Shown here: piece after piece, positions 3,766 through 63,050 of the stretch
How positions within the stretch are numbered: position 1 is the stretch's first letter
Layout: each line of letters starts with the position of its first letter
Assembly: GCA_028714475.1 (NCBI GenBank)
Contig: JAQTNC010000003.1
Span: forward strand, 15,596-79,595
From: Patescibacteria group bacterium
GTDB taxonomy: Bacteria > Patescibacteriota > Patescibacteriia > SG8-24
DNA: 64,000 nt
Reading direction: 5' to 3'
The notes under the pieces: generated by a model
What the model was told of the DNA's origin: nothing
The model's database searches: none
What the model saw: the letters and a program-made list of their open reading frames with translations, nothing else
Made by a program: the position numbers and the translations under genes

Positions 3766-3802
3766 GCCCTCCCCCGGAGCTTTCTGGGAGAGGGCGGTTT
3801 TG
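3766..3802 (+). terminator. Rho-independent terminator
   Basis: The hairpin gccctccc...gggagagggc is followed by ggtttt. Confidence 0.45.
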
Positions 3803-3962: not shown

Positions 3963-4037
3963 TCAGGAAACAAATTCGTAGATTCGCTCCGTTTAAGTGC
4001 CTTGTATCTTTCTCCTTTTGGACTTCGGCTCCCCTCT

Positions 4038-15537: not shown

Positions 15538-15547
15538 GGAAGTGCTG

Positions 15548-18500
15548 TCAGTGGTTTTGGGGTTGCATGACGACGTCAGTCAAGGGCCGGTGTTGGGCCG
15601 AATCAACCGGCAACTCGAACCAGAAAGTGCTGCCTTCGCCTTCAGTGCTTTCGAAACCAAGTCGGCCCCCATGGCGTTCAGCGAAATAACGGGCGACGTA
15701 CAGCCCGAGTCCCGATGAATCCGGTTTCATGAGCGGCGCGTTGGTGGCGCGATAGAACCTTTCGCCGATGCGGTGCTGTTCGGCCCGCGGGATGCCAATG
15801 CCTCGGTCGGCCACCTCAAAACGGATGGCTTGAGGCGAAAACGACAGCTTGACGGTGATGTGACCGTTTGACGGCGAATAATCGACGGCGTTTTCGAACA
15901 GGGCGGTCATGGCCAGCCGCACCTTGTCCGGATCGGCGTAAACGACGGGCAACGGCCCGGTCGGTTTCACCAAATCCACCGTCAGGATCTTGGCCGCACA
16001 TCGGCTAGCCAGGGAACGGTGAACCGCTTCCCACAGGCTGTCCGCCGAAAACTCCTCTCGATTCAGGACGGTGCGCCCTTCCTGGATGTCCACCGCCGTC
16101 AGCATTTCGCCGATATTCCTGATGACGTCATTGGTCTCGTCACGAACCACCCGCAGGAATTCCTTCTGCGCCGACGGCAGTTCGCCTATTTGACCCTCAA
16201 GCATGGCCTGGATATTCCAGTTCACTGACGCGAGCGGCATCCGCAACTGTTGGGAAACGAACTGATTAAGCTTGTTCTGCAGCCGCTCGGCGTCGCGCAG
16301 CCGCCCTTCAGCCTGCCGGCTGGCGGTGATGTCCTGAACCAAACCATCCAGATAGGCGTGGCCAGCCGCGTCGGTCTGCCGACTGACCGATAACCTTACC
16401 CAGATCTTCCGCCCCTTGAAGGTCTTCACCATGATTTCCTCGTTCTTGAGTTGGCCTATATCGTTCAGCCTGGCTAGCATCTGGCCCCAAGCGGACTCGT
16501 CGACCCTCAAGTCGTTAAGCGGCAAGGTCAACAGATGTTCCAGCGAATCGACCTCGAGCAGGCTGACGGCCGCCGGATTGGCGTATAGGAACTTCCCCTC
16601 TGGGTCGGCCAAACACCGGAAAACGCCGACCGGCAAGCCGGACAACAACGTCTGACTGCGCTCGCGCTCCTCGGCCAATTGCGTTTCCGTCTGCCGCCGC
16701 TCGGTGATATCCTCGACGATGCAGTCGAAATAACCGCCGCTCGGCCCGCGCCGATACACGGCCGTAACCTCGCACAAAATTGGGCGACCCTTCAGTGTCC
16801 TTAGCTGCAAAGGGTAGTCGCGCAATGTCCCCTTTTCCTGCAAATCCTTCTCAAAAGCCTCACGGTCACGGTCGTTGACATACAGGTCGGCAATGGGATG
16901 ACTGTTCAACTCATCCCGCGAGGCCGCCTCGAACATGACGGCGGCGGCGTCATTCAGATCGACGAACCGGCCTTGCGGCCCGGGCGTCCGGCGATAGACG
17001 GCGACCGCGAGGTTGTCGAGCAGGGAGGCATACCTCTGTTGCGATTCCGCGAGTGCCTCCTCGGCGACACGCCTTTCGGTGACGTCACGCAAGGCCCCGA
17101 TGACCCCGTGCGGCTGGCCGTGCTCGTCCAAACGCTGTCGGACGACGGCCTCAAGCCAAACCGCCCGCTCACCGTCGCGCTTCAGGCGCACGATGACGGG
17201 CTGGCCGGACGGATGGCCGCCGTGAGCCATCTCGTCCCGCATCTGCTTTTCCACCCTTGGCCGGTCCTCGTCGGCGACGAAATCCATCAGGGGACGACCG
17301 ACGGCCTTTTCCGGCATCAAGCCCAAGCGGCTGGCCTGGGGACTGACGTAATCCAGGATGCCTTTCGGGTCAACACTGAAAACCACGTCATAAACGTTCT
17401 CGGCCAACAGGCGATAGCGCCGTTCGCTCTCCGCGAGTGCCTTCTCCGCCTCGTGTCGTTCGGTGATGTCGCGCACGAGCGAGATGACGCCGACCGGACG
17501 ACCCTGCTCGTCGCGCTGGACGCGCCCAATCTCCTCGACCCAGAAAATCTTTCCTTGAGGGCTGACGATGCGCATCTGCATCGGGTGCTGTTCGCCGGTG
17601 GTCAGCGTCATCTGGAGTTCCGCCGCGACCCGCTCCCGATCATCCGGATGGATGACTTCCAGGATGTTCCTCCCGATGTCGCCCGGCCCGTAACCGAACC
17701 GGCTGGCTTGCGGACTCAAGAAGGTGATGCGGCCGGTGCCGTCCACCACGTTCACCACGTCACTGGAGCCTTCGACGATGGCGCGATAACGCGCCTCGCT
17801 TTCCATGAGCGCCCCCTCCGCCAGCTTGCGTTCGGTGATGTCGTGAAGAACGCCGGTCAAGCCGATGATTTTCCCTGCCGGGTCGCGCTGGACGTGGTCC
17901 GACTCTTCCATCCAATGAACGTTGCCGGACCGGTCACGCACGCGGAACTCAATACGCACCTCCTCGCCGGTCTCCATCTCTCTCGTGAACATCGCCGCGA
18001 CATTTTCTGCGTCCTCCGCGACAATCAAGCCAATCTCCATGAACGACCGGCCCACGATCTCCTCCGGCGCCCGGCCTAACCGTCGGCATTGGGGGCTGAC
18101 GTAGGTGACCTTGCCGTCGCGATCAAGCGTAAAGATGATGTCCGGGCTGTTCTCGGCAAAGGCGCGGTAGCGAGCCTCGTTTTCGGCAAGTGCCTTCCCG
18201 GCCTTGACGCGGTCGGTGATGTCGCGGGCTATGCCCAACATCATCCGCCGACCCTGCGCCTCAACGGGATAAGCCGTGATCTCGATGCTGATGATGTCGG
18301 CGTGATTCGGCACCTTCGCGCTGAAAACCGTCGGCGGAACCGGCTGGCCGGACGCAACCATTTGGTTGATGCCTTGCAGGATTTTTTCGTCCTCGGGCGT
18401 AGCCGGATCGGTCTTGGCTGCCACCTGGCCGATCAAATCCTCACGGCTCACGCCGTTCAGGGCCGCCATCTGATAATTAACGTCCACGAAGGCGCCTGTT

Positions 18501-21500
18501 TCCACGTCAATCAAATACATCGCGTCCGGCGCCTTTTCGAAAATGACGCGGAAACGCTCCTCAGAAGTGCGCAAGTGTTCCTCCGCCATCCGGCGCCGGG
18601 TTACGTCGCGCATCACGCCGACAAATCCGGACGCCTGACCGGCGGCGTCGCGCTGAATGGCGACGGACGACTCAACCCAACGGGTGACACCGCTCTTGTC
18701 TCGGACGCGGAAGATGACCGGCGCGGCCGATGGCCCGAGCTCCGGCAAGGAACGCCAATACTCCTCGGCCACCTCGCGATCCTCCGGCAGGATGAGGTCG
18801 AGGAAGCGCTTGCCCAGGCACTCCTTCGCTTCATAACCCAATTGCCGCACTTGCGAAGAGCAATAGGTGAGCCATCCGTCAGGGGCGGCGGAAAAGACGA
18901 TCTCGTTGGAGTTGTCGATGATGGTGCGGAGCCGCTGTTCGTTTTCGGCGACGCGTTCCTCGGTCTGCAGGCGCGCGACGACCCCGCCGAAATTCGCCAC
19001 GTAAGCTTCCAAGGCGGCACGGCTCACGGGCGGGATCGTTTCCGCCTGATGGGATGCGAAAAGACAAACGGCCACCAAGCGCTCGGCGTGCCGCACCGGC
19101 AAGACCGCCGCGCAACGCAACCCCTCCTTCTTCATGACCGGACCAGAGGAACCGGCCGACAAGACGGTCGCCTTCAGGTAGGTCGGCGTTCCTTTGGCAA
19201 CCACGGCCAGCAAATCTGAACCTGCCGAATACTGGTAGACTGCCTGGACAAAGCTGTCGCTAAAGTTCCGATGAACGGTGAGCTTGAGCGAACCGTCCGG
19301 TTCGACCAGATAGACCCCGCCGCAATCCACTCCCTCTGCCTGAACAGCGGCCTCAAGCATGATGATGCCGGCTTCGGCCACGGAAGGCGCCAAGGCCAGG
19401 CGCTGGGCGAGCTCGCGCTCCATGTTGACGAGCCCCTCGACGCGCCGGCGTTCGCTGATGTCGCGCAAGGTGCCGATGATGCCGACCATCTGACCCGTCG
19501 GGCTGAAGCGCGCCTTGACCGTCGCCTCCACCCAAATCGGCTCGCCCTGCTCGTTCACGGCTTGGCCAGTCACGACCACCGGTTTCCGCACTTCGGCCAC
19601 ACGGGCCGGATCGGACACGGACGCGGCCTGTTCCCGGTCCTCCGGCACCAGAATCTCGACGAACGGCCGTCCGACGAACTTTTCCGCCTCCTTGCCGAAG
19701 TGCCGAATCTGCGGGCTGACGTATTCGACGCAACCGTCGGTTCCCGCGACAAAAACGGCGTCACTGATGTTTTCCGAATACTCGCGGTACCGCTGTTCCT
19801 CGTCAGCGATCCGCCTTTCCGCGCGCTTCAGTTCAGTGATGTCAGCGGCATAGACGCGGATGGCATCGGGTTCCGCCAAAACCGTCACCGCTTGCCAATA
19901 ACAGGCGTCGCCCACACATACTTCGCGAGCCGCCTGCCCGCTCGACGGCAACCCCTTGACGAAGGCCTCGATGCCCACGAGGAAAGGATGCCCCGAACCG
20001 CGCGCCGCGAGGTCAGGGAAAAGCGCCTTGGCCGCCGGGTTGGCATAGGTGATCTCAAAATGACGATTACATTCGAGCACCGGGTGCGGATTGCGTTCGG
20101 GAAAAGACGACAGCCGTTCCGTCTCCGCCTCCAGGCGCTTGAATTCCGTCATGTCCACGGCCACGCCGCTCATGCCCACGATCTGATCGCCGCGACGCAA
20201 GGGGGTCGTATAGAGGGCGGCCGTGATGACGTGGCCGTCCTTGCCGACCAACCGGTACTCGTTGGCGTGGTGAGTTTCGCCAGCCAACACCTTGGCGATG
20301 TTGGCGGCGGCACGGGCACGATCTTCCGGCGCCACCAAATCCGTGAGCCTGACGCCGGACCGAAAATCCTCGTCCGTGTAGCCGGACAATTCCTTGGCGC
20401 CGCGGTTCCAAAAGACCACCCGCCCCTCCAAATCCGCCGCGAAGACGATTTGCGGCAGGACGTCCATGGATTCGCGGAAGCGCTGTTCGGTTTCGCGCAC
20501 GGCCGACTCGGACTGCCGTTTGGCCTCGCGCAGGCGCAGGATCGCGATGCCGTAGGCCAAATCGTCTGTCAAAGCCATTAGCAAGCCCTCGCTTTCCTTG
20601 TCAAAGGCGTCAACCTCAGATGAAAAAAACTCGATGACGCCGATCGTGCCTTCGGCCAGACGAAGCGGCAAGGTCAGGCTCGATCGCAGGCCTTGCGCCA
20701 AGGCTGCCTGCCGCCACGGCTGGAACGTCGGCTCGGTAGCCAGGTCTTTCGCCAAGACCGGCAAGCCGGTGCGGATGCACGCCCCGGTCGGGCCGCGACC
20801 GCGCTGCGTGTCCGACCAAACCACCTGCAGCTCCTTCAGGAAATCGCCATGGGTGCCCGCGGAGGCGACTGGCCGTACGGTCTTGACCTCGTCTTGCTCG
20901 GCCAGGCCGACCCAAACCAGTCCGTAATCCCCGAAACGCGCGATGATGCTGCAGACGTCGTTCAGAAGAGCCGGCTCGCTGTCCGCCCTGGCCACGGCCT
21001 CATTGACCGCGACCAGGATGCGCAAGGACTTTTCGTGGCCTTTCGCTTGCCGTTCGAGCAGGCGCCGGTTGGTGATGTCGGAGAAAACCGTCACTACCCC
21101 GACGGTCTTGCCGGCCGCATCGCGCAAGGGGGCGGCGTTGACCGACAACATCTTTCGTTTTTCCGCCACGCGAACGGCGAACTCTACGCCCAGGACCGCT
21201 CGGCCGGTGGTCCGAACGACATTGAAAGGCAAGTGTTCTTCCGGGAACGGCCCGCCAGCCACGTCCTCTATCTGCCATCGGAGGTCATTTTGGGGCCGGC
21301 CAATGAATTCGCTGCGGCTGATGCCCAAGACGCCTTCGCCGGCCTCATTCACGAAGGTGAATCGTCCGGCTTCGTCGATCAGCGCCACACCTTCCGGCAC
21401 CGCCTCGATGATGGTCTTCAGCCGATCCGTCTGCTCGCGATTCAGGCGCTCGATTTCCTGCCGCGCGGCCGCGTCATGGATGATGCCGATGATGAGCGAA

Positions 21501-22612
21501 CGCCCCCCTTCCTCAACGGCCGCCAAATCCACTTCTGCCGGCATGTCCGGCTGGTCGCGGCGGCGATAAGCACTCTCGAAGGAAACGCGGCGCTTTTTCA
21601 ACGCCTCCTTCAGGCGCGCGCCGACCAGCTTGTCGAACGGCGCGGCGACGATGTCCTGAAGGTTCATTTCCATGAGTTCGCCGCGCTCGCGGCCGACCGT
21701 CTTGGTCAGGGCACTGTTCACGAAAACGAACCGGCCGTTCTCGTCCACGACATAAATGGCGTCCGCCGTTGAATCCAACAGCCGCGCCTTCAGTGCCAAT
21801 TCATCAACCAGCCGCTGGCGTTCAGTGACGTCCAAACCGGAACTCAAGATGCCAACGACCTGACCTTGGGCATCCCGCAGAATCGTATTGCGCCAAACCA
21901 ACAGCCGCTCCTCGCCGCCATGCGTCACCACCGGGTTCTCGAATGACGGCTGATTCTCGTCTTTCTCCGGCGGCACGGCCATAAGGCGCCGAAACTCCTT
22001 CGTCACGCGCGGCCGAATCGCCGCCGGCAGAAAACTTTCGAACCAGTCCCGACCGACCGCCTCGGCCTTGCTGACGCCCAGGATGTCCGCGCCCGTCTGG
22101 TTGATGGCCGTGACGCGCCCGCTCGCGTCCAAGGCGACCAGCATGGCGTTCGCCGTATCGAAATAGCGTTCGGCCCTGGTCTTCTCGAGGCTGATGGTTT
22201 CCTCGACTTGCCACCGGTCGGTGATGTCCCTTGAGACGACGCAGGCAAATTCCTGTTCGCCGGCCACGACGTAGCTCATGGTGGATTCGACCGGATAAAT
22301 CGTTCCGTCATGACGGCGATGAAACGATTCCATCACCCGGGACTGCCGATTCCTGATGTCGCCCCAGAACTGCTCCCACGTCTCCTTGGTTGCCCCTTCG
22401 CAGAAATCCGTGAGCCGCATCTTCAAAAGGCGGCTGCGGCCGTAACCGAGCGCCTTGACTGCCGCCTCGTTCACATAGTGGATTTCCGCTGACGCACCGA
22501 CCCAATAAACCTCGTCCGCCGAGGCCTCCAAAGTGGCGAGAGCCAACAAACAATCCTGGGCGGCCGTTCCAGCCGTCTTGTTGGCATTTGGAGCCTCTTT
22601 TTCCTGGACCAT
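15548..22612 (-). CDS. Giant cytoplasmic multi-PAS/GAF sensor histidine kinase (2354 aa; roughly 15 or more PAS/GAF modules, HisKA, HATPase_c)
   Basis: Single uninterrupted 7.06 kb ORF. The C-terminal HisKA/HATPase region is paralogous to that of the upstream kinase (FYRATNAPL...GLGLYVARYF vs FYRATNALL...GLGLSIAKHY). No response regulator is adjacent. Confidence 0.9.
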   Translation of the reverse strand: MVQEKEAPNANKTAGTAAQDCLLALATLEASADEVYWVGASAEIHYVNEAAVKALGYGRSRLLKMRLTDFCEGATKETWEQFWGDIRNRQSRVMESFHRRHDGTIYPVESTMSYVVAGEQEFACVVSRDITDRWQVEETISLEKTRAERYFDTANAMLVALDASGRVTAINQTGADILGVSKAEAVGRDWFESFLPAAIRPRVTKEFRRLMAVPPEKDENQPSFENPVVTHGGEERLLVWRNTILRDAQGQVVGILSSGLDVTERQRLVDELALKARLLDSTADAIYVVDENGRFVFVNSALTKTVGRERGELMEMNLQDIVAAPFDKLVGARLKEALKKRRVSFESAYRRRDQPDMPAEVDLAAVEEGGRSLIIGIIHDAAARQEIERLNREQTDRLKTIIEAVPEGVALIDEAGRFTFVNEAGEGVLGISRSEFIGRPQNDLRWQIEDVAGGPFPEEHLPFNVVRTTGRAVLGVEFAVRVAEKRKMLSVNAAPLRDAAGKTVGVVTVFSDITNRRLLERQAKGHEKSLRILVAVNEAVARADSEPALLNDVCSIIARFGDYGLVWVGLAEQDEVKTVRPVASAGTHGDFLKELQVVWSDTQRGRGPTGACIRTGLPVLAKDLATEPTFQPWRQAALAQGLRSSLTLPLRLAEGTIGVIEFFSSEVDAFDKESEGLLMALTDDLAYGIAILRLREAKRQSESAVRETEQRFRESMDVLPQIVFAADLEGRVVFWNRGAKELSGYTDEDFRSGVRLTDLVAPEDRARAAANIAKVLAGETHHANEYRLVGKDGHVITAALYTTPLRRGDQIVGMSGVAVDMTEFKRLEAETERLSSFPERNPHPVLECNRHFEITYANPAAKALFPDLAARGSGHPFLVGIEAFVKGLPSSGQAAREVCVGDACYWQAVTVLAEPDAIRVYAADITELKRAERRIADEEQRYREYSENISDAVFVAGTDGCVEYVSPQIRHFGKEAEKFVGRPFVEILVPEDREQAASVSDPARVAEVRKPVVVTGQAVNEQGEPIWVEATVKARFSPTGQMVGIIGTLRDISERRRVEGLVNMERELAQRLALAPSVAEAGIIMLEAAVQAEGVDCGGVYLVEPDGSLKLTVHRNFSDSFVQAVYQYSAGSDLLAVVAKGTPTYLKATVLSAGSSGPVMKKEGLRCAAVLPVRHAERLVAVCLFASHQAETIPPVSRAALEAYVANFGGVVARLQTEERVAENEQRLRTIIDNSNEIVFSAAPDGWLTYCSSQVRQLGYEAKECLGKRFLDLILPEDREVAEEYWRSLPELGPSAAPVIFRVRDKSGVTRWVESSVAIQRDAAGQASGFVGVMRDVTRRRMAEEHLRTSEERFRVIFEKAPDAMYLIDVETGAFVDVNYQMAALNGVSREDLIGQVAAKTDPATPEDEKILQGINQMVASGQPVPPTVFSAKVPNHADIISIEITAYPVEAQGRRMMLGIARDITDRVKAGKALAENEARYRAFAENSPDIIFTLDRDGKVTYVSPQCRRLGRAPEEIVGRSFMEIGLIVAEDAENVAAMFTREMETGEEVRIEFRVRDRSGNVHWMEESDHVQRDPAGKIIGLTGVLHDITERKLAEGALMESEARYRAIVEGSSDVVNVVDGTGRITFLSPQASRFGYGPGDIGRNILEVIHPDDRERVAAELQMTLTTGEQHPMQMRIVSPQGKIFWVEEIGRVQRDEQGRPVGVISLVRDITERHEAEKALAESERRYRLLAENVYDVVFSVDPKGILDYVSPQASRLGLMPEKAVGRPLMDFVADEDRPRVEKQMRDEMAHGGHPSGQPVIVRLKRDGERAVWLEAVVRQRLDEHGQPHGVIGALRDVTERRVAEEALAESQQRYASLLDNLAVAVYRRTPGPQGRFVDLNDAAAVMFEAASRDELNSHPIADLYVNDRDREAFEKDLQEKGTLRDYPLQLRTLKGRPILCEVTAVYRRGPSGGYFDCIVEDITERRQTETQLAEERERSQTLLSGLPVGVFRCLADPEGKFLYANPAAVSLLEVDSLEHLLTLPLNDLRVDESAWGQMLARLNDIGQLKNEEIMVKTFKGRKIWVRLSVSRQTDAAGHAYLDGLVQDITASRQAEGRLRDAERLQNKLNQFVSQQLRMPLASVNWNIQAMLEGQIGELPSAQKEFLRVVRDETNDVIRNIGEMLTAVDIQEGRTVLNREEFSADSLWEAVHRSLASRCAAKILTVDLVKPTGPLPVVYADPDKVRLAMTALFENAVDYSPSNGHITVKLSFSPQAIRFEVADRGIGIPRAEQHRIGERFYRATNAPLMKPDSSGLGLYVARYFAERHGGRLGFESTEGEGSTFWFELPVDSAQHRPLTDVVMQPQNH

Positions 22613-24433: not shown

Positions 24434-25345
24434 TCAATTCCCGTTTGGCGAATCATCCGGCGGCGCAACGACCGGTTCGGGTTGTCGGAAAATCGCGGCG
24501 AATCGCCTCATGTCTTCGGTCGCCGACACGGACTGCAGGTGAAAGACGGTCTCGTCAGAATTGTTGACGCCGCCGGGGAAAGCGCGCGCCGCTCGGTAGC
24601 CAGCCGCCTTGACTGCCGCCTCCTCCTCGGGCGACGTCACGCCGAACGGATAAGCGAACAGATCCACGATCACACCCAATTCTCGCTCGAGCGCCGTCTT
24701 GCTGCCGGACACTTCGGCAGCCATGGTTTTCTCGTCCTTGACCTTATGAAGGAACGGGTGCGTCTTTGAATGACAACCGATGGTCATGCCGCGGTCAAGA
24801 AGATCGCGCAACTGATCCCAAGTCATGAAGCGCTTGTCGCGGCCAATGGGGTTCGTGAAGACGAAGAAAGTGGCGTTGTAACCGTATTTCTCCAGGATGG
24901 GGGCGGCGTTCGCATACTGGTTTTCCCAGCCGTCGTCGAGCGTGATGACCACGGCCTTGGGCGGCAACACCTTGGCACCGCTCGTGGCCGCGACAAAGTC
25001 AGTGAGCGAAATGACCGCGTAGCCGTTATCGTGCAGAAAACGCATCTGCGTCTCGAAGGCGGTGACCGTAACGTCATAAACGGATTTCGGCTTGTCCTCG
25101 ACCACCTTGTGATAAACCAAAATTGGCGCGGTCACGGCGGTGCCGGACTTGATAGCCGCGACCAGCTCCACTACTGAAGGCGTCACCGTCACGGTCTCGC
25201 TCACCGGCGGTGGCATTTTGGCTTGATATGACTGGATCCTCTCGACGGCATCCTGCGGATCGGCGGCCGGCCAAAGGATGATGGCCGAGAGTGCCGCCAC
25301 CGCGAAGCTGCCAACGGCGATGACGTAAATCAAGTACCTGGGCAT
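24434..25345 (-). CDS. Polysaccharide deacetylase (NodB-homology domain) with an N-terminal signal anchor
   Basis: 303 aa. Contains ILVYHKV...TLDDGW...IGCHSKTHP motifs of the carbohydrate esterase 4 / NodB domain. Confidence 0.85.
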   Translation of the reverse strand: MPRYLIYVIAVGSFAVAALSAIILWPAADPQDAVERIQSYQAKMPPPVSETVTVTPSVVELVAAIKSGTAVTAPILVYHKVVEDKPKSVYDVTVTAFETQMRFLHDNGYAVISLTDFVAATSGAKVLPPKAVVITLDDGWENQYANAAPILEKYGYNATFFVFTNPIGRDKRFMTWDQLRDLLDRGMTIGCHSKTHPFLHKVKDEKTMAAEVSGSKTALERELGVIVDLFAYPFGVTSPEEEAAVKAAGYRAARAFPGGVNNSDETVFHLQSVSATEDMRRFAAIFRQPEPVVAPPDDSPNGN

Positions 25346-25353
25346 AGGGGTAA

Positions 25354-25409
25354 TGGAGTGCTGGAGTGCTGGAGTGCTGGAGTGCTGGAGTGCTGGAGTG
25401 CTGGAGTGC
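25354..25409. repeat. Perfect tandem repeat (GGAGTGCT)x7, followed downstream (25460..25535) by imperfect complementary CTTCAGCACTTCAGTACT copies
   Basis: Seven identical 8-mers were counted directly, starting 8 bp upstream of the deacetylase start codon. A similar CTGGAGT / TTCAGCACT block lies at 28640..28735. Confidence 0.7.
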
Positions 25410-25540
25410 TGGAGTGCTGGCTAATTATGGTGGGTAAATTTTTTGTCAAGTAATTTTTTCTTCAGCACTTCAGTACTTTTGCACTTATGCACTGACTTCT
25501 TCAGCACTTCAGTACTCCCCAACTTCAGCACTACCATGCT

Positions 25541-29393: not shown

Positions 29394-29409
29394 GACACAA
29401 AGATATTTT

Positions 29410-29906
29410 GTGCGAAGCACACTTTGCGGAATAGATGACTTCATTTCGCGAGGCCGCCCCTCCCGTCGTGACGGGAGGGGCCCGCAGGCCGAGCGCATAC
29501 GATTATTTAGTTGGTGAATGTTTGGTTTCTAGAAGAGGCCGGGCGGGGTCGCCCTTTAAGGCCACTCGACGCCCGCGTCGGCTCGGTCCCCGAGCTTGCC
29601 CTGAACCATTACGGTTCAGGGCTTGTCGAGGGGCGACGCGGGTCGGCGACGTGAGCGACGGCCGCCGCTGGAGCGGCCGAGCGTGCCGTAAGGCACCGGA
29701 CAGAACCTCGCCTCGCTCGGTTCGTCCGATGGTGTGCCTTTCGGCGATCGGTTGCGGCCTTGGCCGCGCCTTTCGGTGTCCGCCCGCGCGCGGGCGGACT
29801 TCGCCGTAAGGGCGACCCCGACGGCCGGACGCCTGTTACTTGTTCTGCCCCTCGACTTCGCTCGGGGAAGAACAGGTATCGCGGGGCGGTGGTCGAAGTG
29901 CACACT
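29410..29906 (+). repeat. R1 structured repeat element, copy A (about 495 bp, with an internal about 100 bp partial duplication)
   Basis: Begins gtgcgaagcacac-tttgcggaa..gacttc..cgcgagg, then a hairpin, then the conserved cccgcaggccgagcgcatacgatt. Ends ...cgcggggcggtggtcgaagtgcacac. Paralogous to elements at 48682, 61614(-) and 62680. Confidence 0.75.
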
Positions 29907-31043: not shown

Positions 31044-31073
31044 GCCCCCAGCATGCTGATGGGGCTTTTTTTG
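31044..31073 (+). terminator. Rho-independent terminator
   Basis: agcccccagcatgctgatggggct followed by ttttttt. Confidence 0.8.
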
Positions 31074-31232
31074 TTCACCTCCGCCAAATACCCCGGGCGT
31101 CAGCCCGGGATTTATGACGCGTGAATCCCCCGAAGTCGCCCGAAGGGTGACGAAGGGGGCATCGGGCTACGGTGAATGAAGTATGAAGGGGTCCTAGATA
31201 CCCCGGGCATGCGCCCGGGGAGTCTTCATATT
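31070..31232 (+). repeat. R2 repeat element, copy b
   Basis: Same architecture as 3800..3962 and about 85% identical to it, except for the variable central hairpin. Confidence 0.6.
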
Positions 31233-32418: not shown

Positions 32419-32523
32419 ATTATTGGTAGCGGCAGGGCTTGTCCCTGCGCCACCATAAACGAACGGCTGGATTGACGTTGCCGAGGCGTTAAGGTGGTGG
32501 CGGGGTAAACCCGCCCGCTACTG
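32405..32523. repeat. Pair of inverted copies of the GTAGCGG-CAGGG-loop-CCCTG-CGCCACC palindromic motif, about 50 bp apart
   Basis: ggtagcggcagggcttgtccctgcgccacc ... ggtggtggcggggtaaacccgcccgctactgg. Confidence 0.6.
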
Positions 32524-32657
32524 GTTATATTTATAGGCAGAATTTGCCTCTGTGCCACTTTATTATACCGCAAATCACCCTGCCGACCACTGGCCACCGC
32601 CAAACGACAACCAAAACGGCGCCCCGTCGGGACGCCGCTGTTCACTAAAATTATTCA

Positions 32658-43617: not shown

Positions 43618-43635
43618 GCTGATGATATAAATTGT

Positions 43636-43735
43636 AGCGGCCGGGCTTGTCCCGGCACCACCTTAGACGAACTAATGAATTTATAAGCGGTGATGCGTTT
43701 TTGGTGGGGCAGGGATAAACCCTGCCGCTACAATT
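43636..43735. repeat. Pair of inverted copies of the palindromic motif (GTAGCGGCCGGGCTTGTCCCGGCACCACC ... GGTGGGGCAGGGATAAACCCTGCCGCTAC), 35 bp apart
   Basis: Direct reading of the sequence. The same motif is found at 455..485 and at 32405/32490. Confidence 0.6.
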
Positions 43736-44596
43736 TTAGATGACCGCGCGGACGGTGATGCCAGCCGGCAGAAGGAAGCCGCGTGGGGATTTTTCCTGCA
43801 GGACCAATTCTACGCTTTCAATGCTCGCGGCATCAGGAAAAACGTCGCGCACGGCCTGCTCGACGGCGATGGCCGGAAAACCCATGGAGTAGGCGTTGAG
43901 CAGAAGCAGGCCGCCGGGTTTCAAGATTATCCGGCACGAATGCAATAGCGGCAGGAGGTCAGACTCAAAACGCCACAGCTCCTTATTCGGTCCGCGCCCA
44001 AACGCGGGTGGATCCATGATGATGGCGTCATAGATTCGTTCACGCCGTGCCTCGCGCATCACGAATGTCGCGGCGTCGTCCTCAATCCACCGGACCGGAC
44101 GGTCGGCAAATCCGGAAAGCTCGGCGTTGTGTTTCGCCGCCGCAATGGCCGGCCGGCTCGCGTCCAGGTGCACGACCGACGCGCCAGCGCTCAAGGCCGC
44201 GAGCGTCGCTCCACCGGTATAGCCGAAAAGATTCAACACCTGCGCCTCCGGCTTCAACCAACCGCGTAGGTACGCCCAGTTCGCCGCCTGTTCAGGAAAA
44301 ACGCCGGTGTGCTTGAAGGACGAGAGGCGCAAGCCGAACTTGAGATTCTCCCAGCGCACGCTCCAGTCATCCGGCGGATTATTGCGCACCTGCCAGGAGC
44401 CTTCCTCGCCGCGCTGTTCGAATCGCGCCACCGCCCGTTCCCAAACTTCCGGCAAACCCGGCGACCACAAAGCATGCGGCTCCGGCCGCGCCACCACGAC
44501 CGCGCCGAACCGTTCGCATTTCATCTGGTCGCCGCTGTCGAGGAGCTCATAGTCCTGCCAGACGGCGATTTCCCTGTTTAATGTCTCACCGGCCAT
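43736..44596 (-). CDS. Class I SAM-dependent rRNA methyltransferase (RlmI/RlmK-like)
   Basis: 286 aa with SAM-binding motifs VLNLFGYTGGA...DPPAF. Confidence 0.8.
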   Translation of the reverse strand: MAGETLNREIAVWQDYELLDSGDQMKCERFGAVVVARPEPHALWSPGLPEVWERAVARFEQRGEEGSWQVRNNPPDDWSVRWENLKFGLRLSSFKHTGVFPEQAANWAYLRGWLKPEAQVLNLFGYTGGATLAALSAGASVVHLDASRPAIAAAKHNAELSGFADRPVRWIEDDAATFVMREARRERIYDAIIMDPPAFGRGPNKELWRFESDLLPLLHSCRIILKPGGLLLLNAYSMGFPAIAVEQAVRDVFPDAASIESVELVLQEKSPRGFLLPAGITVRAVI

Positions 44597-47628: not shown

Positions 47629-47918
47629 GTTTCAGCTCCTCAATGTCTGGTTGGGCTAACCTGGGGCAAGCTTGCCGCAAACACGTCAAAATGTCAACGA
47701 TTGTTGCCGCATACAAAAACCCGAGACGCTTTAGGTCTCAGGCTTTTGGCGGGGGTGTAAGGCGCGGCCATGCGCCTTTCGGCGATAGGTGGCGCCCGTA
47801 GGCGCTTACTCCATGGTCCGGTCGGCTCCGCCGATCGGCCGCGCCGCAGGAGTCGAAAGTCGACTCCTTTCGCGCCCCATACACAAATTCCCCCGCCCAA
47901 AACGGGAGGGGGAATTTG

Positions 47919-47992
47919 TGGCGGGGGCTGTAGGAGTCGAACCTACCACAGCGGTTTTGGAGACCGCAGTTATACCGATTAACTAAACCCCC
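47919..47992 (-). tRNA. tRNA-Trp (anticodon CCA)
   Basis: Manual fold: acceptor GGGGGTT / AGCCCCC, anticodon loop CTCCAAA, T-arm GTAGG-TTCGACT-CCTAC, encoded CCA. Followed by a strong hairpin cacaaattccccc...gggggaatttgtg at 47882..47920. Confidence 0.85.
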
Positions 47993-48118
47993 ATGAATAA
48001 CTGGCTGACTGTCGTTAATTTCCAAAGGGTGAAGCTGGGTCGCCTTAATGCTACGGAACGTAGAATACTTTAGCCACTATCCCAAGGCTTGGCAATACCA
48101 AACGAAAGAGAGCCACCA

Positions 48119-48364
48119 TCACCACTCCCGATATGTCGTATCCGAGCGCCTCTCAATGGCCAACACCCGCCATCCGTCGGCCTTCCGCAAAAAGATTATC
48201 CGCAACTCGCCATGGCGTACCCGATAGACGTCGTCGCTTCCATGCAGTTTCTTGATATCCAGGCCGGCCAAGTGCCCGGCCTCAACAGCCTCGATAATTC
48301 TAGCAACAGAAACAACCTCCTTGGCGCTCATCTTGCGAATCGCCTTTTGGATGCGGTCAACCAT
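48119..48364 (-). CDS. RelE/ParE-family type II toxin
   Basis: ORF 48119..48484 trimmed to MVDRIQKAIRK... The C-terminal YRVRHGELRIIFLRKADGWRVLAIERRSD matches RelE/ParE. Confidence 0.75.
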   Translation of the reverse strand: MVDRIQKAIRKMSAKEVVSVARIIEAVEAGHLAGLDIKKLHGSDDVYRVRHGELRIIFLRKADGWRVLAIERRSDTTYREW

Positions 48365-48371
48365 AGCGTGG

Positions 48372-48593
48372 CTAGCGCCGTTTGAGCCGCGTGAGCAGCT
48401 CCTTGGCCGAGATGCCGTTCTTGCGGAAAGACGTGAAGTCAACGACGGTTTCCCAGCCGTCCTGCTCCACCGGTCCAACGGCAAAAATGGGCTTGGATCG
48501 CCTCATAACCATGAACGACTTGCCCGCCGCCACTTGGCGCACGTACGTTGCCATGTTTTCACGAAATTCCCTTAATCCAACGGCTGCTACCAT
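48372..48593 (-). CDS. Type II antitoxin (Phd/YefM-like)
   Basis: 73 aa and 7 bp upstream of the toxin. LREFRENMATYVRQVAAGKSFMVMRRSKPIFAV resembles Phd/YefM N-termini. Confidence 0.6.
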   Translation of the reverse strand: MVAAVGLREFRENMATYVRQVAAGKSFMVMRRSKPIFAVGPVEQDGWETVVDFTSFRKNGISAKELLTRLKRR

Positions 48594-48681
48594 ATAATCC
48601 CATGTTAATCTTTAGATTAACCTTATTGTAACCCCCTGTCGCCCTCCAAGTCAACACCGCGATACGTACAATAAATAAATC

Positions 48682-48987
48682 GTGCGAAGCACACTATGCG
48701 GAAAAATGACTTCTTATCGCGAGGTCTGGCGACGCCCAGCGTCGCCGCCGCAGGCCGAGCGCGCATACGATTTTTTTTGGGGAGGTGGCGCGGAGGCCGC
48801 CGCCCCTAGCGTCATCTTAGAGCTTCCGTAGGAGCCGTTCGTCTGGAGGCCGCAGGCCGCGACCGGAATGAGGGAGCGGCGCGGCCGCAAGGCGGAGGCG
48901 GCGACACAGGAAGCGACCTGATGACGCGGGGCGGCGGCCGGAAGCGCCCGGCGACCTTCTGGATTCCCCCGCAAAGCGGGACTTCAC
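48682..48987 (+). repeat. R1 structured repeat element, copy C (conserved 5' and 3' modules, divergent middle)
   Basis: Begins gtgcgaagcacac-tatgcggaa..gacttc..cgcgagg, then hairpin ggcgacgcccagcgtcgcc, then gccgcaggccgagcgcgcatacgatt. Ends ...cgcggggcggcggccggaagcgcccggcgaccttctggattccc. Confidence 0.7.
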
Positions 48988-49082
48988 ATCATATTACATT
49001 AAGGTTGGTCGCGGTTTTCGCCGGAATGACGGCATGCGACCACAACGCCAAACCCCCCGCAGTATTGCGGGGGGTTTAAACT

Positions 49083-49238
49083 CTACTTCGTCTCCTTGTG
49101 CGGCGCGTGGCCCTTGCAGTGCTTACAGAACTTCGAGAGCTCCAGGCGATCCTTGGTGTTCTTCTTGTTCTTCCGCGAGTTGTAGTTGACGCGATGGCAC
49201 TTGGTGCACTCGATCTTGATGATATTTTCCTGGGACAT
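49083..49238 (-). CDS. rpmG: 50S ribosomal protein L33
   Basis: ORF 49083..49328 trimmed to MSQENIIKIECTKCHRVNYNSRKNKKNTKDRLELSKFCKHCKGHAPHKETK. CxxC...CxxC zinc-ribbon L33. A hairpin ccccccgcagtattgcgggggg follows the stop. Confidence 0.85.
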   Translation of the reverse strand: MSQENIIKIECTKCHRVNYNSRKNKKNTKDRLELSKFCKHCKGHAPHKETK

Positions 49239-49341
49239 AATTGTATGGTTACTTGCGGACGTTATCAGTCTTCGATGATTTTGTCCAGACACCGTTATTT
49301 CGGCGGAGCCCACCCAAGGCGAGCCCATGTTATCTTTTTGC

Positions 49342-49417
49342 TGGAGCCGACGGAGGGATTCGAACCCACGACCCGCACTTTACAAAAGTGCCGCTCTGCC
49401 AGCTGAGCTACGTCGGC
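49342..49417 (-). tRNA. tRNA-Thr (anticodon TGT)
   Basis: Manual fold: GCCGACG-TA-GCTC-AGCTGGCA-GAGC-G-GCACT-TTTGTAA-AGTGC-GGGTC-GTGGG-TTCGAAT-CCCTC-CGTCGGC-T-CCA. One U-U mismatch in the T-stem. Confidence 0.8.
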
Positions 49418-49418
49418 G

Positions 49419-49503
49419 TGGTGGGCAGTCTAGGATTCGAACCTAGGAAGGCGAAGCCAGCAGATTTACAGTCTGCCCCGTTTGACCGCTCCGGAAACTG
49501 CCC
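49419..49503 (-). tRNA. tRNA-Tyr (anticodon GTA), long variable arm
   Basis: GGGCAGT..CCGG-AGCGGTCAAA..GCAGA-CTGTAAA-TCTGC-[13-nt variable arm]-CTAGG-TTCGAAT-CCTAG-ACTGCCC-A-CCA. Confidence 0.85.
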
Positions 49504-49736: not shown

Positions 49737-49785
49737 GGTGGAGCCGACGACCGGGTTCGAACCGGTGACCTCCCCGCATTTTTCC
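49737..49785 (-). pseudogene. tRNA-Thr 3'-half fragment (T-arm plus acceptor 3' strand) fused to GGAAAAATGCGG
   Basis: The minus strand reads GGAAAAATGCGGGGAGGTCACCGGTTCGAACCCGGTCGTCGGCTCCA, identical to the 3' 35 nt of the neighbouring tRNA-Thr(GGT). Confidence 0.6.
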
Positions 49786-49861
49786 TGGAGCCGACGACCG
49801 GGTTCGAACCGGTGACCTTCTCCTTACCATGGAGATGCTCTACCAGCTGAGCTACGTCGGC
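49786..49861 (-). tRNA. tRNA-Thr (anticodon GGT)
   Basis: GCCGACG-TA-GCTC-AGCTGGTA-GAGC-A-TCTCC-ATGGTAA-GGAGA-AGGTC-ACCGG-TTCGAAC-CCGGT-CGTCGGC-T-CCA. Confidence 0.75.
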
Positions 49862-50241
49862 ACGAGGAAATATGCGGGGAAAGAACTGACTTAGCCCTCG
49901 GTCGTCGGCTCCCTGCGGAAAAATGCGGGGTGCTCTACCAGCTGAGCTACGTCGGCGTGATCGATTTTTTTTACTATGTGCAAGGACCTGGGCTGAACCG
50001 GTGACCTCCCCGCGTTGCCGCGGGGTGCTCTACCAGCTGAGCTACGTCGGCACGAGGAAATATGCGGGGAAAGAACTGACTTAGCCCTCGGTCGTCGGCT
50101 CCCTGCGGAAAAATGCGGGGTGCTCTACCAGCTGAGCTACGTCGGCGTGATCGATTTTTTTTACTATGTGCAAGGACCTGGGCTGAACCGGTGACCTCCC
50201 CGCGTTGCCGCGGGGTGCTCTACCAACTGAGCTACGTCGGC
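49862..50241 (-). repeat. Two tandem 190 bp repeat units (about 99% identical), each carrying two tRNA-Thr 5'-half-like fragments (acceptor + D-arm) joined to non-tRNA hairpins
   Basis: Unit 49861..50050 recurs at 50051..50240 with 1 mismatch. Fragments GCCGACGTAGCTCAGCTGGTAGAGCACC are followed by CCCGCGGCAACGCGGGG or CCGCATTTTTCCGCAGGGAGCCGACGACCG. Confidence 0.8.
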
Positions 50242-56446: not shown

Positions 56447-56682
56447 CGCCGCGCCCGACAACTCTCCCTGAGCCACCCTCGGCTCCCCGACCGCGCCCGT
56501 TCTACGACGACGCGGTTTTGTTTTCCTTCAACCGCCGACAATTCTACCGGTGCCTGTCCCCCTTATCCACAGGGACAGTCCCTTTGGGGACTGTCCCCTT
56601 AACATAAAAACCCGTGGCCAAAACGCCACGGGCCTCCTCCTGAAAAAATATTCCTGAAAAACGATCTGGAGAGGAACCCGGG

Positions 56683-56945
56683 CTTTGCCGAAGCTGCCTA
56701 GGCAATGGTGCCTCGTTCGGCTGCTGCCAGTCGGAACCGGCGGCGGCCGAGTCGGCGCCTCCCCTGAACCGTTATGGTTCAGGGGTCCCTCCTCCATGTC
56801 GCTTGTCAGGAACGCTGTTATGTTGCGAATCACCACCCGGAAAACAAGATGGAGATGGAACCTAGGCTTTGCCGAAGCTGCCTAGGCAATGGTGCCTCGT
56901 TCGGCTGCTGCCAGTCGGAACCGGCGGCGGCCGAGTCGGCGCCTC
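56683..56945 (+). repeat. Two direct copies of an about 95-130 bp repeat (56683..56762 and 56866..56945), each followed by a CTCC-TCCAT-TCGCTT box. Flanked by hairpins gggacagtccctttggggactgtccc (56559..56588) and ccctgaaccgttatggttcagggg
   Basis: ctttgccgaagctgcctaggcaatggtgcctcgttcggctgctgccagtcggaaccggcggcggccgagtcggcgcctcc occurs twice. The track ORFs in it (MPKLPRQWCLV...) are duplicated and probably non-coding. Confidence 0.65.
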
Positions 56946-57222
56946 CTCAACCCACCGAGGCGGATTAAGGCTCCCCCCTCCATTTCGCTTTCAAGGTGTT
57001 CATTTTCGAACAGATAACCATAGCACAAAAAACCCTTCTTGTCAAGGGTCGGCGGCATTATTTGAACACGGATTTTATTCAGCAAAATCGCGTCAAATAC
57101 AGACGAAAATTAATCAACAACTGGGCCATATTTGACATTCACTCTCCCCACAGATAATCTTCAGCCGGTCGGCCGGTCCAACCAACCCACCGATCCGCAA
57201 CTAGAACAGCAAAGGAGCCTCC

Positions 57223-61613: not shown

Positions 61614-62000
61614 CACCACCCCCGCGAAAGCGGGGGCCCAGAAACAACACGTGCGCTCCGGCCGCCGCCCCGCGGCATAATGTTCTTCCACGAGCGGAGC
61701 GAAGCGGAGTCGAGGGGCAGAACACGAACAACGTCCGGCCGGTCGGGGCCGCCCTTACGGCACGCTCGCCGCTCCGGCGGCGGCTTCGCTCGACTTCGCT
61801 CGCGATGTCCCCCCGCAGTACTGCGGGGGGCACCAAGCCATCGCTCGCTCGAACGGCCTTAAAGGGCGGCCCCGCCCGACCTCATCCAGAAACTCACCTC
61901 AACCTATAATAGATAAGCGCTCGGCCTGCGGGGGCCGCCAAGCATGGCGGCCCGGCCTCGCGTAATGAAGACATCTTTTCCGCAAGGTGTGCTACGCACG
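61614..62000 (-). repeat. R1 structured repeat element, copy D (inverted orientation; its 5' end faces the low-GC cargo)
   Basis: Reverse complement reads cgtgcgtagcacacc-ttgcggaa..gtcttc..cgcgagg, then hairpin gggccgccatgcttggcggccc, then ccgcaggccgagcgc ... ccccccgcagtactgcgggggg ... gccgcggggcggcggccggagcgc. Confidence 0.7.
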
Positions 62001-62045
62001 TTTAAAAAAGGACAAATCCAAAAGATTTTCTAATCGCTGAAAATG

Positions 62046-62633
62046 CTAACAACAATTAGCGAAAAAAAGTTCGTCATCTTCGGCAATCGGCATCCACGGT
62101 CCCAACATTCTCACATCGCCATCTTTAAATGAGACTTCAACATCGATGCCCTGCTTTCTAGTTTTATAAACCAATTTGTCAATCGAAAATATATCCTTTT
62201 CATTTGAACGAATTTCAAGAGGTATATCACTAATGTGCTTTAACAGCCATTCTTGAAAATCAAACCATTTCGGCAATCTAACGATATCATCAGGCAATTT
62301 ATTCAATTTCAATACCGCACATAATTCCCTTCGCAGAGAATATAGGAGCGCGAAATCGGATAATTCTTTTCTTAAGGTCGCGTTTGGCTGCGTTAAATAT
62401 TGTTCAAACTTATCTAGCCAATATCTTGCACAAGACCAACGCAACGCATTATGTACTGACCAATTCCGAAATAGTGTTACTTGTCTAAATTGATCATCGT
62501 CTGATATTCCATCTCTTTCAAACAATCGGCCCAACTGCACCAGTATATATACTACGTCACTTTCACTATCAATATTGCCATGAATCTTTTTAGACAACTT
62601 TTCCAATATTTCATCTGTCATACAATATTGCAT
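62046..62633 (-). CDS. Orphan hypothetical protein in an about 0.7 kb low-GC (about 35-40%) foreign segment
   Basis: 195 aa ORF (MQYCMTDEILEKLSKKIHGN...). Sharp compositional contrast with the high-GC flanks. No recognisable motif. Confidence 0.6.
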   Translation of the reverse strand: MQYCMTDEILEKLSKKIHGNIDSESDVVYILVQLGRLFERDGISDDDQFRQVTLFRNWSVHNALRWSCARYWLDKFEQYLTQPNATLRKELSDFALLYSLRRELCAVLKLNKLPDDIVRLPKWFDFQEWLLKHISDIPLEIRSNEKDIFSIDKLVYKTRKQGIDVEVSFKDGDVRMLGPWMPIAEDDELFFANCC

Positions 62634-62679
62634 CTTATGCTTAACACCCTCGCGTACTTCAATAATATTTCATACTTTC

Positions 62680-63050
62680 CTTGCGGACGACTTGTCATCC
62701 TTACGCGAGGCCAAGCGGCGCCTAATGCGCCGCTCCCGCAGGCCGAGCGCATACATTTTAAAGGGGTTGGGGTTGTTTTCAAGGCGAGGCCGGGCGGGGT
62801 CGCCCTTTAAGGCCACTCGACGCCCGCGTCGGCTCGGTTCCCCCGCAGTACTGCGGGGGACGACGCGGGTCGGCGACGTGAGCGAAGGCCGCCGCTGGAG
62901 CGGCCGAGCGTGCCGTAAGGGCGACCCCGCCCGGCCGGACGTCCGTTATTTGTTCTTCCCCTCGACTTAGCTCGGGGCAGAACGCTTGCCGCGGGGCGGC
63001 GGCCGGAAGCGCCGGCTGTTCCTGGATTCCCACCTTCGCGGGAATGGCGT
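62680..63050 (+). repeat. R1 structured repeat element, copy B (5' end faces the low-GC cargo; 3' end abuts the murD stop codon)
   Basis: cttgcggacgacttgtcatccttacgcgagg, then hairpin agcggcgcctaatgcgccgct, then cccgcaggccgagcgcatac ... ccccgcagtactgcgggg ... gccgcggggcggcggccggaagcgccggctgttcctggattccc. Confidence 0.7.

Follow-up and report, generated by a model that had tools for sequence, protein, structure and literature searches.

The 64,000-nucleotide stretch of contig JAQTNC010000003.1 analyzed here (hereafter the window), from the genome of a Patescibacteria group bacterium, carries on its minus strand an array of tRNA genes and the ribosomal protein gene rpmG. In this array, 1090 nt separate the rpmG stop codon from the 5' end of tRNA-Trp. 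This spacer is tiny in most of the relatives examined. In the window, it probably owes its length to two independent additions: a toxin–antitoxin (TA) cassette, which encodes a RelE-type toxin and a Phd/YefM-type antitoxin, and a worn copy (copy C) of an intergenic repeat termed R1. An earlier reading of this DNA, made from the letters alone (the sequence-only reading), had placed an antitoxin, a toxin, and R1 copy C in the ~1.1 kb between rpmG and tRNA-Trp, and this content was confirmed. The full minus-strand order is tRNA-Thr(GGT), tRNA-Tyr, tRNA-Thr(TGT), rpmG, R1 copy C, antitoxin, toxin, and tRNA-Trp. The same reading had also taken the insertion as a link between R1 and mobile DNA, a claim that gained no support other than adjacency, as described below. 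Overall, the locus appears to be a selfish-gene insertion of an ordinary kind, with no evidence that the TA pair and R1 arrived together.

Relatives were represented by 68 rpmG loci taken from species-representative genomes. This set did not include the window's own genome, and its nearest L33 proteins (the rpmG product) were 73–75% identical to that of the window. The order of the tRNA genes and rpmG, described as conserved in the sequence-only reading, was kept in the Patescibacteria relatives. The gap between rpmG and tRNA-Trp was compared among the Patescibacteria loci in which tRNA-Trp follows rpmG on the same strand (n = 11). It was short in seven of them (8 nt in L009, 29 nt in L023, 80 nt in L017, 82 nt in L010, 95 nt in L012, 127 nt in L069, and 179 nt in L013) and long in the remaining four (434 nt in L018, 732 nt in L014, 744 nt in L019, and 746 nt in L011). 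Two of the loci with short gaps, L012 and L013, share with the window tpiA and the gene for a TPR membrane protein upstream of the array (TpiA 47% identical in L012, TPR protein 30% identical in both) and, among the loci available, come closest to representing an empty site. These gap lengths support the 1.09-kb filling as a putative addition relative to most relatives examined. Together with the presence of the TA family at unrelated sites elsewhere, the short spacers point to insertion into a spacer that has been colonized repeatedly.

The long spacers of the relatives held genes of other kinds. L011, from a Falkowbacteria metagenome-assembled genome (MAG), and L019, from a Saccharibacteria MAG, each contained an open reading frame (ORF) of 227–229 amino acids (aa) with an HTH_23 domain, and these two ORFs were homologous (35% identity, E = 2e-36). 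The L014 spacer contained a GIY-YIG gene confirmed by Pfam (6554–6859) and a 139-aa ORF, and the L018 spacer a 91-aa ORF without a match. Further ORFs, read from their translations only, were found at other positions of the array: a GIY-YIG-like ORF between tRNA-Tyr and tRNA-Thr(TGT) in L015 (5493–5792), a small ORF between the same two genes in L012, and a resolvase-like ORF of 525 aa directly after tRNA-Trp in L010 (6295–7872). The spacers of this array thus appear to house different small selfish genes repeatedly across Patescibacteria. As for the small mobile insertion at a tRNA-proximal hotspot proposed in the sequence-only reading, insertion at a recurrent spot is borne out, given the gaps of 8–179 nt in 7 of the 11 relatives, but a classical tRNA-targeted island is not. 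The insert is upstream of tRNA-Trp, 126 nt away from its 5' end; no integrase adjoins the insert, and no part of tRNA-Trp is duplicated.

The long spacers also bear on the alternative that the spacer content is ancestral to the lineage and was lost in the relatives examined, with nothing having been inserted. Four relatives (L011, L014, L018, and L019) likewise have spacers of 434–746 nt, and the homology of the L011 and L019 ORFs across two distant classes could mean old residency of some gene in this spacer. However, the contents of these four spacers show no relationship to either the TA pair or R1, and the TA family, although found at many other loci in other genomes, never occupies the rpmG/tRNA-Trp spacer there. 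Moreover, several separate lineages have short spacers, among them L012 and L013 with their conserved upstream genes. An ancestral origin of the spacer content is therefore highly improbable, and insertion is preferred.

The TA family was found at eight other genomic contexts in other genomes, none of them an rpmG/tRNA-Trp spacer. The antitoxin/toxin pair (72–74 aa and 79–82 aa, respectively) recurs in L003, L197, L198, L201, L203, and L205; in L204, the ORF downstream of the antitoxin homologue is cut by the contig end. The pair is located beside a Fic TA system and rpsO in L003, between ftsX and murI in L198, beside queC in L201, after yidD in L203, and before an aspartyl-tRNA synthetase-type gene in L205, and it has three further contexts. 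DNA similarity among the cassettes is confined to about 48632–48132 of the window. Upstream of the antitoxin gene, a promoter scan detected a −35 element TTGACT (48654–48649) and a −10 element TACAAT (48630–48625) spaced by 18 nt, with 10 of 12 consensus positions matched. A perfect palindrome, GTTAATCT-TT-AGATTAAC (48604–48621), lies between the −10 element and the antitoxin ATG. When the DNA upstream of the antitoxin was aligned for eight members of the family, taken from different genomes, the −35 TTG proved invariant and a palindrome, TAATCTnAAGATTA, was conserved just in front of the start codon. The limits of the similarity and the conserved upstream region together define the mobile unit as promoter, putative operator, antitoxin, and toxin, roughly 535 nt in length (48654–48119). 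From these alignments and contexts, the TA family appears to be Patescibacteria-wide and to move as such a unit into unrelated intergenic sites. The TA genes of the window have a GC content of 55%–57% and a GC content at third codon positions (GC3) of 0.67–0.72, which is only slightly below the neighboring host genes. Because this composition is close to that of the host, the insertion event is not compositionally recent.

The toxin gene starts 7 nt after the antitoxin gene, both on the minus strand (48372 and 48364). An identical toxin sequence is on record as the hypothetical protein PHT12_01725 of a 'Patescibacteria group bacterium' MAG. Searches of the toxin itself against Pfam, NCBIfam, and PADLOC gave no match, and it matched PHROG 1213 'RelE-like toxin' (E = 4.9e-7). 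Its 43 homologues were 78–94 aa long and 43%–58% identical; the named ones were mostly from Candidatus Uhrbacteria. Of the 44 family members, 27 matched PF05016, the RelE/ParE superfamily (best E = 1.1e-6), and the best matches of the family profile to solved structures were RelE3 (3bpq_B, 8.4e-6) and aRelE (1wmi_A, 9.5e-5). The AlphaFold2 (AF2) model of the toxin, built on the family alignment, had a pLDDT of 87 and consisted of helices at residues 2–10 and 14–28, followed by strands at 36–39, 46–51, 54–61, and 64–72. It thus has the two N-terminal helices and the four-stranded antiparallel sheet of the microbial-RNase-like fold, whose members have ~80–100 aa. In a Foldseek search of the PDB, the first 17 matches were all RelE/HigB-type toxins (TM up to 0.74), led by Methanocaldococcus jannaschii RelE3 (3bpq), Pyrococcus horikoshii aRelE (1wmi), Streptococcus pneumoniae HigB (6af4), and Escherichia coli RelE (4fxe). 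Mycobacterium tuberculosis RelE1 and RelE2 were also among the leading matches (TM 0.62–0.74 in this leading group), and ParE structures appeared only at ranks 43 and 49.

The basic catalytic residues of E. coli RelE are K52/K54, R61, and R81, together with Y87, and ParE lacks them. In the toxin family of the window, R48, R55, R73, D75, and T77 are invariant and Y78 is nearly so. Alignment of the toxin with E. coli RelE by hhalign, at a probability of only 40% and ending at R81, paired R48 with K52, R55 with R61, and R73 with R81. Y78 lies five residues past R73, near the position of E. coli RelE Y87. On the PHROG match, the homologues, the family profile, the fold ranking, and the aligned invariant residues, we call the toxin a predicted RelE-type toxin, neither ParE nor HigB. 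The sequence-only reading had left it as RelE/ParE, with a Phd/YefM-like antitoxin; by profile and fold, these two are a RelE-superfamily toxin and a Phd/YefM-type antitoxin. Assignment of the toxin to the RelE branch was reached via PHROG, homologues, and fold, but neither protein had a direct Pfam or NCBIfam match, and the assignment of both consequently relies on profiles, PHROGs, and predicted folds.

The 73-aa antitoxin scored below threshold with PF02604 (19.8 bits, cut-off 29.8, E = 6.6e-4) and with TIGR01552 (18.3 bits, cut-off 20.8), and the best of its homologues reached 26.2 bits with the Phd/YefM model. The antitoxin family profile matched Phd/YefM-type N-terminal domains, namely those of VapB46 (6jqy, 2.4e-5) and VapB5 (3dbo). 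In the AF2 model, residues 1–40 form a beta-alpha-alpha-beta-beta arrangement with a pLDDT of 80–85, and the C-terminal half is poorly predicted (pLDDT < 50 for residues 45–58). Foldseek superposed this model on the N-terminal domain of VapB46 (6jqy, TM 0.86, root mean square deviation 1.4 Å) and also found Phd (3hs2/4zlx) and YefM (2a6q). The antitoxin is thus predicted to have a Phd/YefM-type N-terminal dimerization and DNA-binding domain and a C-terminal region modeled with low confidence. In the NCBI annotation, the antitoxin (PHT12_01730) has 60 aa; the longer form starts at 48593. As its homologues of 72–74 aa align over 97%–99% of the 73-aa form, the annotated start is probably too late.

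A Phd/YefM-fold antitoxin together with a RelE-fold toxin is a known combination, and TA pairs of the RelE and Phd types are textbook systems. The best profile and fold matches of the toxin were to archaeal RelBE systems (M. jannaschii RelE3-RelB3, 3bpq; P. horikoshii aRelE-aRelB, 1wmi), with a TM score of about 0.70. The toxin shares with them its small size (81–90 aa) and the alpha-alpha-beta4 layout, but the identity is only 21%–24%, and the antitoxin matches Phd, YefM, and VapB46 rather than archaeal RelB. The gene order, with a YefM/Phd-fold antitoxin upstream of a RelE-superfamily toxin, is the same as in M. tuberculosis RelBE2 (Rv2865-Rv2866, 3g5o) and E. coli YefM-YoeB (2a6q). Both chains of 3g5o were among the Foldseek matches (toxin rank 10, antitoxin rank 31), although the likeness to RelBE2 and YefM-YoeB is at the level of the fold only (7%–12% identity). 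YoeB has a His-Tyr pair at its C-terminus, whereas the toxin of the window ends with the motif ERRSDTTY and lacks this pair. The N-terminal domain of the antitoxin also superposes on Phd of the Phd-Doc system of phage P1 (3hs2, 4zlx, 4zm2) with a root mean square deviation of about 1.5 Å over 40 residues. As in Phd-Doc, a palindromic operator, here a putative one by analogy, is placed between the promoter and the start codon, but the partner is a RelE-type toxin and not a Doc/Fic kinase. In HigBA systems, the toxin gene is upstream of an HTH-type antitoxin. This assignment was rejected for the pair of the window, where the antitoxin comes first and has the Phd fold; HigB (6af4) is a neighbor at the fold level only.

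From the established Phd/YefM and RelE systems, we infer how the cassette might work. Transcription would start from the cassette's own sigma-70-like promoter. Antitoxin dimers, either free or in complex with the toxin, would most likely bind the palindrome at 48604–48621 and repress the operon, and the C-terminal half of the antitoxin would most likely wrap around the toxin and neutralize it. Upon degradation of the labile antitoxin, the toxin would most likely cleave mRNA in the ribosomal A site. RNase activity and autoregulation are in this way proposed by analogy.

The second addition, R1 copy C, is placed between the putative rpmG terminator and the cassette promoter. R1 is a GC-rich, hairpin-rich mosaic intergenic repeat of ~390 nt, with four copies (A, B1, B2, and C) in the window, in both orientations. 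The 15-mer CCGCAGGCCGAGCGC has exactly four exact occurrences in the window, one per R1 copy; with up to two mismatches allowed, it has six matches, compared with 0.9 expected by chance. The copies are 73%–75% identical over their alignable parts, and the inverted pair B1/B2 (74%) is no closer than unlinked copies. Copy C is the shortest and most diverged: its significant similarity to the other copies is limited to the head and a tail piece of 47 nt, and about 19 nt of the AT-rich island are missing from it. In BLAST comparisons, its ~100-nt head had E values of 1e-11 with copy A (75% identity) and 2e-10 with copy B1, and the tail piece (48922–48968) matched copy B2 (85% identity, E = 1e-6). 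In the head of copy C (48666–48776), a conserved stem, CGCGAGG...CCGCAGGCCGAGCGC, encloses a variable hairpin. The R1 head folds on either strand, with a fixed outer stem (CGC/GCG, GGCC/GGCC) and a 5-nt asymmetric loop. The inner hairpin differs in sequence in each copy and keeps its pairing, with double changes in 6 of 19 pairs (a sample of four sequences, too small for statistical conclusions).

Two assembly features and several sequence features of R1 were also observed. Two independent Logan assemblies with the exact toxin (L001, SRR22315509; L002, SRR22315508) both start at window position 48823, inside copy C. This fits a break induced by a repeat or by strain variation, and other parts of the genome may hold copies that resemble C more closely. 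On the tail-to-head strand, the AT-rich island is promoter-like: TTGAAA-16-TAAAAT in B2 (62755–62782), TAGAAA-18-AATAAT in A (29502–29531), and a perfect TATAAT in B1 (61904–61909). The head ends in the hairpin GTGC-GAA-GCAC followed by a T-rich run in A (29409–29421) and C (48682–48694). The promoter-like part is missing from copy C, and the small end hairpin from copy B2. The promoter-like island and the end hairpin would give a transcript of ~100 nt, from near GCGCUCGGCCUGCGG to GUGC-GAA-GCAC, covering the conserved head. The private insert of copy A (29694–29802) shares a 35-nt stretch of 80% identity with 47771–47805, in hairpin-rich DNA within 280 nt downstream of tRNA-Trp, which may point to a second, small repeat module. 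A coding role for R1 was rejected: its ORFs simply read through GC-rich DNA, giving Arg-rich products, and B1 and C do not preserve the frame.

Searches for R1 beyond its four copies gave no further member. R1 was not found in the phage collection, the plasmid collection, or the viral contigs, nor in 74 other loci, and an unfiltered scan of the entire window with a covariance model built on the R1 head recovered no copies besides the four already known. Against Rfam, only tRNAs passed the gathering threshold, and the four copies gave nothing credible at E up to 5. A metagenome scan with the pattern CGCGAGG-N15-40-CGCAGGCCGAGCGC returned at least 120 stretches, 80 of which were listed; these are chance matches in GC-rich DNA, because BLAST of the full R1 copies showed no real R1 among them. 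A repeat scan of copy C and inspection of the ends of A, B1, and B2 revealed neither the terminal inverted repeats nor the target-site duplications that would be expected of a miniature inverted-repeat transposable element or an insertion sequence. Like the BIME/REP elements of enterobacteria and the BOX elements of S. pneumoniae, R1 is strictly intergenic, occurs in both orientations, and has stable hairpin modules and optional inserts, and its copies have diverged yet retained their pairing. It is far longer (~390 nt) than a REP unit, shares no sequence with a known family in the searches of Rfam, phages, plasmids, and viral contigs, and no REP-associated transposase was seen. R1 is best read as a resident intergenic repeat of mosaic build, organized like REP/BIME or BOX elements; copy C would then be old and unrelated to the arrival of the TA pair. 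This is the weakest step in the argument, because there are only four copies, all from one genome.

The sequence-only reading had linked R1 to mobile DNA, and the corresponding alternative is joint arrival: R1 and the TA pair would have come in as parts of a single small mobile element, of which R1 was the carrier or the non-coding end. Copy C is the immediate neighbor of the cassette promoter (about 12 nt apart, 48666 and 48654), and both R1 and the TA pair are absent from the rpmG/tRNA-Trp spacer of every relative examined. At another locus, the inverted copies B1 and B2 flank a foreign-looking gene. This gene, ORF195 (195 aa, 62046–62633, minus strand), has a GC content of 36% and a GC3 of 0.34 in a genome of 60% GC, and it sits exactly between B1 and B2, the heads of which face it. 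ORF195 had no Pfam, PHROG, PADLOC, or PDB-profile match, and a word-indexed search found only ORF195 itself. An exhaustive search retrieved 222 remote relatives, which were 24%–41% identical among the 150 listed and mostly 170–230 aa in length. E24, W58, H61, and W123 are invariant in this family, which has no assigned function.

The joint arrival of R1 and the TA pair is nevertheless unlikely. R1 is absent from all eight other contexts of the TA family and, in the window, from the side of the cassette that faces tRNA-Trp. The copy beside the cassette, C, is the most decayed and lacks the AT-rich island, and copy A is located between two ordinary convergent genes. The copies are only 73%–75% identical, the arms around ORF195 are no more alike than unlinked copies, and terminal inverted repeats and target-site duplications are lacking. 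The proposed link between R1 and mobile DNA thus comes down to adjacency; by itself, such adjacency counts for less in this genome, which is rich in repeats for a small genome of the Patescibacteria.

Another alternative is that the head of a resident R1 serves as a docking or recombination site that captures foreign cassettes, such as the TA pair and ORF195, loosely like integron attC/attI. At all three R1 loci, the head terminus adjoins the end of a gene: it is 2 nt from the stop codon of a dedA-like gene in copy A, ~30 nt from each end of ORF195 in B1 and B2, and ~12 nt from the TA promoter in copy C. The conserved head stem around a variable hairpin, with compensatory changes in 6 of 19 pairs across four copies, would also suit such a site. 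With four copies only, however, the shared junction could simply be where the repeat stops. None of the R1 copies in the window has a recombinase gene beside it, the R1 sequence does not resemble the attC consensus, and the Rfam and DNA searches gave nothing related. In addition, copy A adjoins an ordinary membrane-protein gene. Capture of cassettes by R1 is therefore very unlikely. The broader idea that R1 is a new structured intergenic element, with its head being either a docking/recombination site or a small RNA gene of ~100 nt with its own promoter and terminator, fares slightly better but is still quite unlikely.

We thus return to the two independent additions as the probable origin of the spacer content, against which several points weigh. 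There is no true empty site, because no close relative is available, and insertion is deduced from genomes with L33 proteins 63%–75% identical or less; an exact-protein look-up for an identical L33, as in sister strains with or without the insert, found none on record. The toxin lacks a Pfam or NCBIfam match and the antitoxin falls under the Pfam and TIGRFAM cut-offs. The antitoxin model is only moderate (pLDDT 70) and was built from seven sequences. The hhalign alignment with E. coli RelE, with its 40% probability, stops short of the C-terminal tyrosine. The end of copy C (48666) and the cassette −35 element (48654) are only about 12 nt apart; because of this proximity, and because the other R1 locus flanks a foreign gene of low GC content, a functional link between R1 and gene acquisition is possible. 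We infer the direction and the order of the two insertion events, as well as the role of R1.

Patescibacteria are often said to be poor in TA systems. The pair described here adds a well-delimited, mostly unannotated, divergent RelE/Phd-type subfamily that is widespread in Patescibacteria, with its mobile unit defined. Annotation work and research on gene flow in reduced genomes can make use of this, but no current view changes. The remaining novelty lies in R1 and in a block of scrambled tRNA fragments beside the array, the only parts that could hide something new.

Both genes that flank the insertion are intact. A GC-rich hairpin starts 5 nt past the rpmG stop codon and is likely the rpmG terminator. 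The 126-nt spacer between the toxin gene and tRNA-Trp contains a promoter-like site detected by a consensus scan, TTGCCA-17-TAAAGT (48095–48067), a candidate promoter that could serve tRNA-Trp. In Gammaproteobacteria and Bacilli, a tRNA-Thr/Tyr/(Gly)/Thr block is part of the tufB operon, and rpmG and tRNA-Trp head the secE operon (PMC8046335). The version of the array without tuf and without secE was common to the Patescibacteria relatives looked at. In the window, tRNA-Thr(TGT) and rpmG are separated by only 103 nt, which leaves no room for tuf, and a Pfam search identified a 72-aa ORF, a GNAT acetyltransferase, and an RF-1-domain protein downstream of tRNA-Trp instead of secE/nusG, just as the sequence-only reading had noted the absence of these genes. 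The coordinates of the array, the cassette, and the R1 copies are listed in the table.

Table. Coordinates of the array, the TA cassette, the R1 copies, and the homologous spacer ORFs of two relatives (window positions unless a locus is named).
Feature	Position	Strand	Support or remarks
R1 copy A	29395–29905	+	~510 nt, with an extra ~110 nt at 29694–29802
Terminator-like hairpin 3' of tRNA-Trp	47908–47890	−	Terminator-like site scan
tRNA-Trp (CCA)	47919–47992	−	ARAGORN and Rfam tRNA, 59.2 bits; CCA end encoded
Spacer, toxin stop to tRNA-Trp	47993–48118	−	126 nt, 46% GC
RelE-type toxin gene (predicted), 81 aa	48119–48364	−	Homologues, profile, PHROG, fold
Phd/YefM-type antitoxin gene (predicted), 73 aa	48372–48593	−	Homologues, profile, fold
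TA promoter and operator (putative)	48604–48654	−	Promoter scan, alignment of eight family members
R1 copy C, degenerate	about 48666–48975	+	BLAST and alignment with the other copies
GC-rich hairpin AAACCCCCCGCA/TGCGGGGGGTTT	49050–49077	−	Perfect 12-nt inverted repeat
rpmG (ribosomal protein L33), 51 aa	49083–49238	−	Pfam PF00471, 8.8e-17; TIGR01023, 4.3e-16
tRNA-Thr (TGT)	49342–49417	−	ARAGORN and Rfam
tRNA-Tyr (GTA)	49419–49503	−	ARAGORN and Rfam; 1 nt from tRNA-Thr(TGT)
tRNA-Thr (GGT), first gene of the array	49786–49861	−	ARAGORN; Rfam, 69.4 bits
Block of tRNA-like fragments	50241–49862	−	Upstream of tRNA-Thr(GGT)
TPR membrane protein gene	stop at 50486	−	Upstream of the array
tpiA	52271–51486	−	Upstream of the array
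R1 copy B1	61616–62015	−	
R1 copy B2	62660–63047	+	
HTH_23 ORF in the rpmG to tRNA-Trp spacer	L011 442–1131; L019 6229–6912		

The gap between the TPR-protein gene and tRNA-Thr(GGT) is 624 nt in the window compared with 146 nt in L012. Directly upstream of tRNA-Thr(GGT), on the minus strand (49739–50241), four units of 95 nt are arranged in the order a-b-a-b, as a duplicated 190-nt pair with 100% identity. Each unit opens with the first 32 nt of a tRNA, comprising the acceptor and D arms of tRNA-Thr(GGT) and a different anticodon stem. In unit a, a 7-bp stem with a GCAA tetraloop replaces the anticodon arm and the 3' part is degenerate; this unit scored 22–24 bits with the Rfam tRNA model (cut-off 29). 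Unit b runs into an inverted, degenerate copy of the tRNA 3' end. The intact tRNA-Thr(GGT) is directly followed by GGAAAAAT and a 39-nt tRNA 3' part that includes CCA. The fragment units had no match in 205 loci. The block has the appearance of scars left by recurrent recombination within tRNA-Thr genes. A reading as split tRNA was rejected, as the 14-nt complementarity includes the would-be anticodon loop, this loop would have A33 and U37, and the units do not fold as tRNAs.

Other repeats were scattered over the window. An intergenic family of about 165 nt has two copies (3798–3963 and 31069–31231; 85%–94% identity), and a hairpin family (GGTGGTGCAGGGATAAACCCTGCCGCTAC) occurs at five places. 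A 184-nt tandem duplication and an 8-nt tandem array (GGAGTGCT) were also present; the coordinates recorded for these last three kinds of repeat are 455–488, 32426–32526, and 43629–43736; 56673–56946; and 25339–25428. Finally, the region 11461–22612 contains two minus-strand ORFs of great length (1358 and 2354 aa), both with internal repeats at a period of about 372–384 nt.

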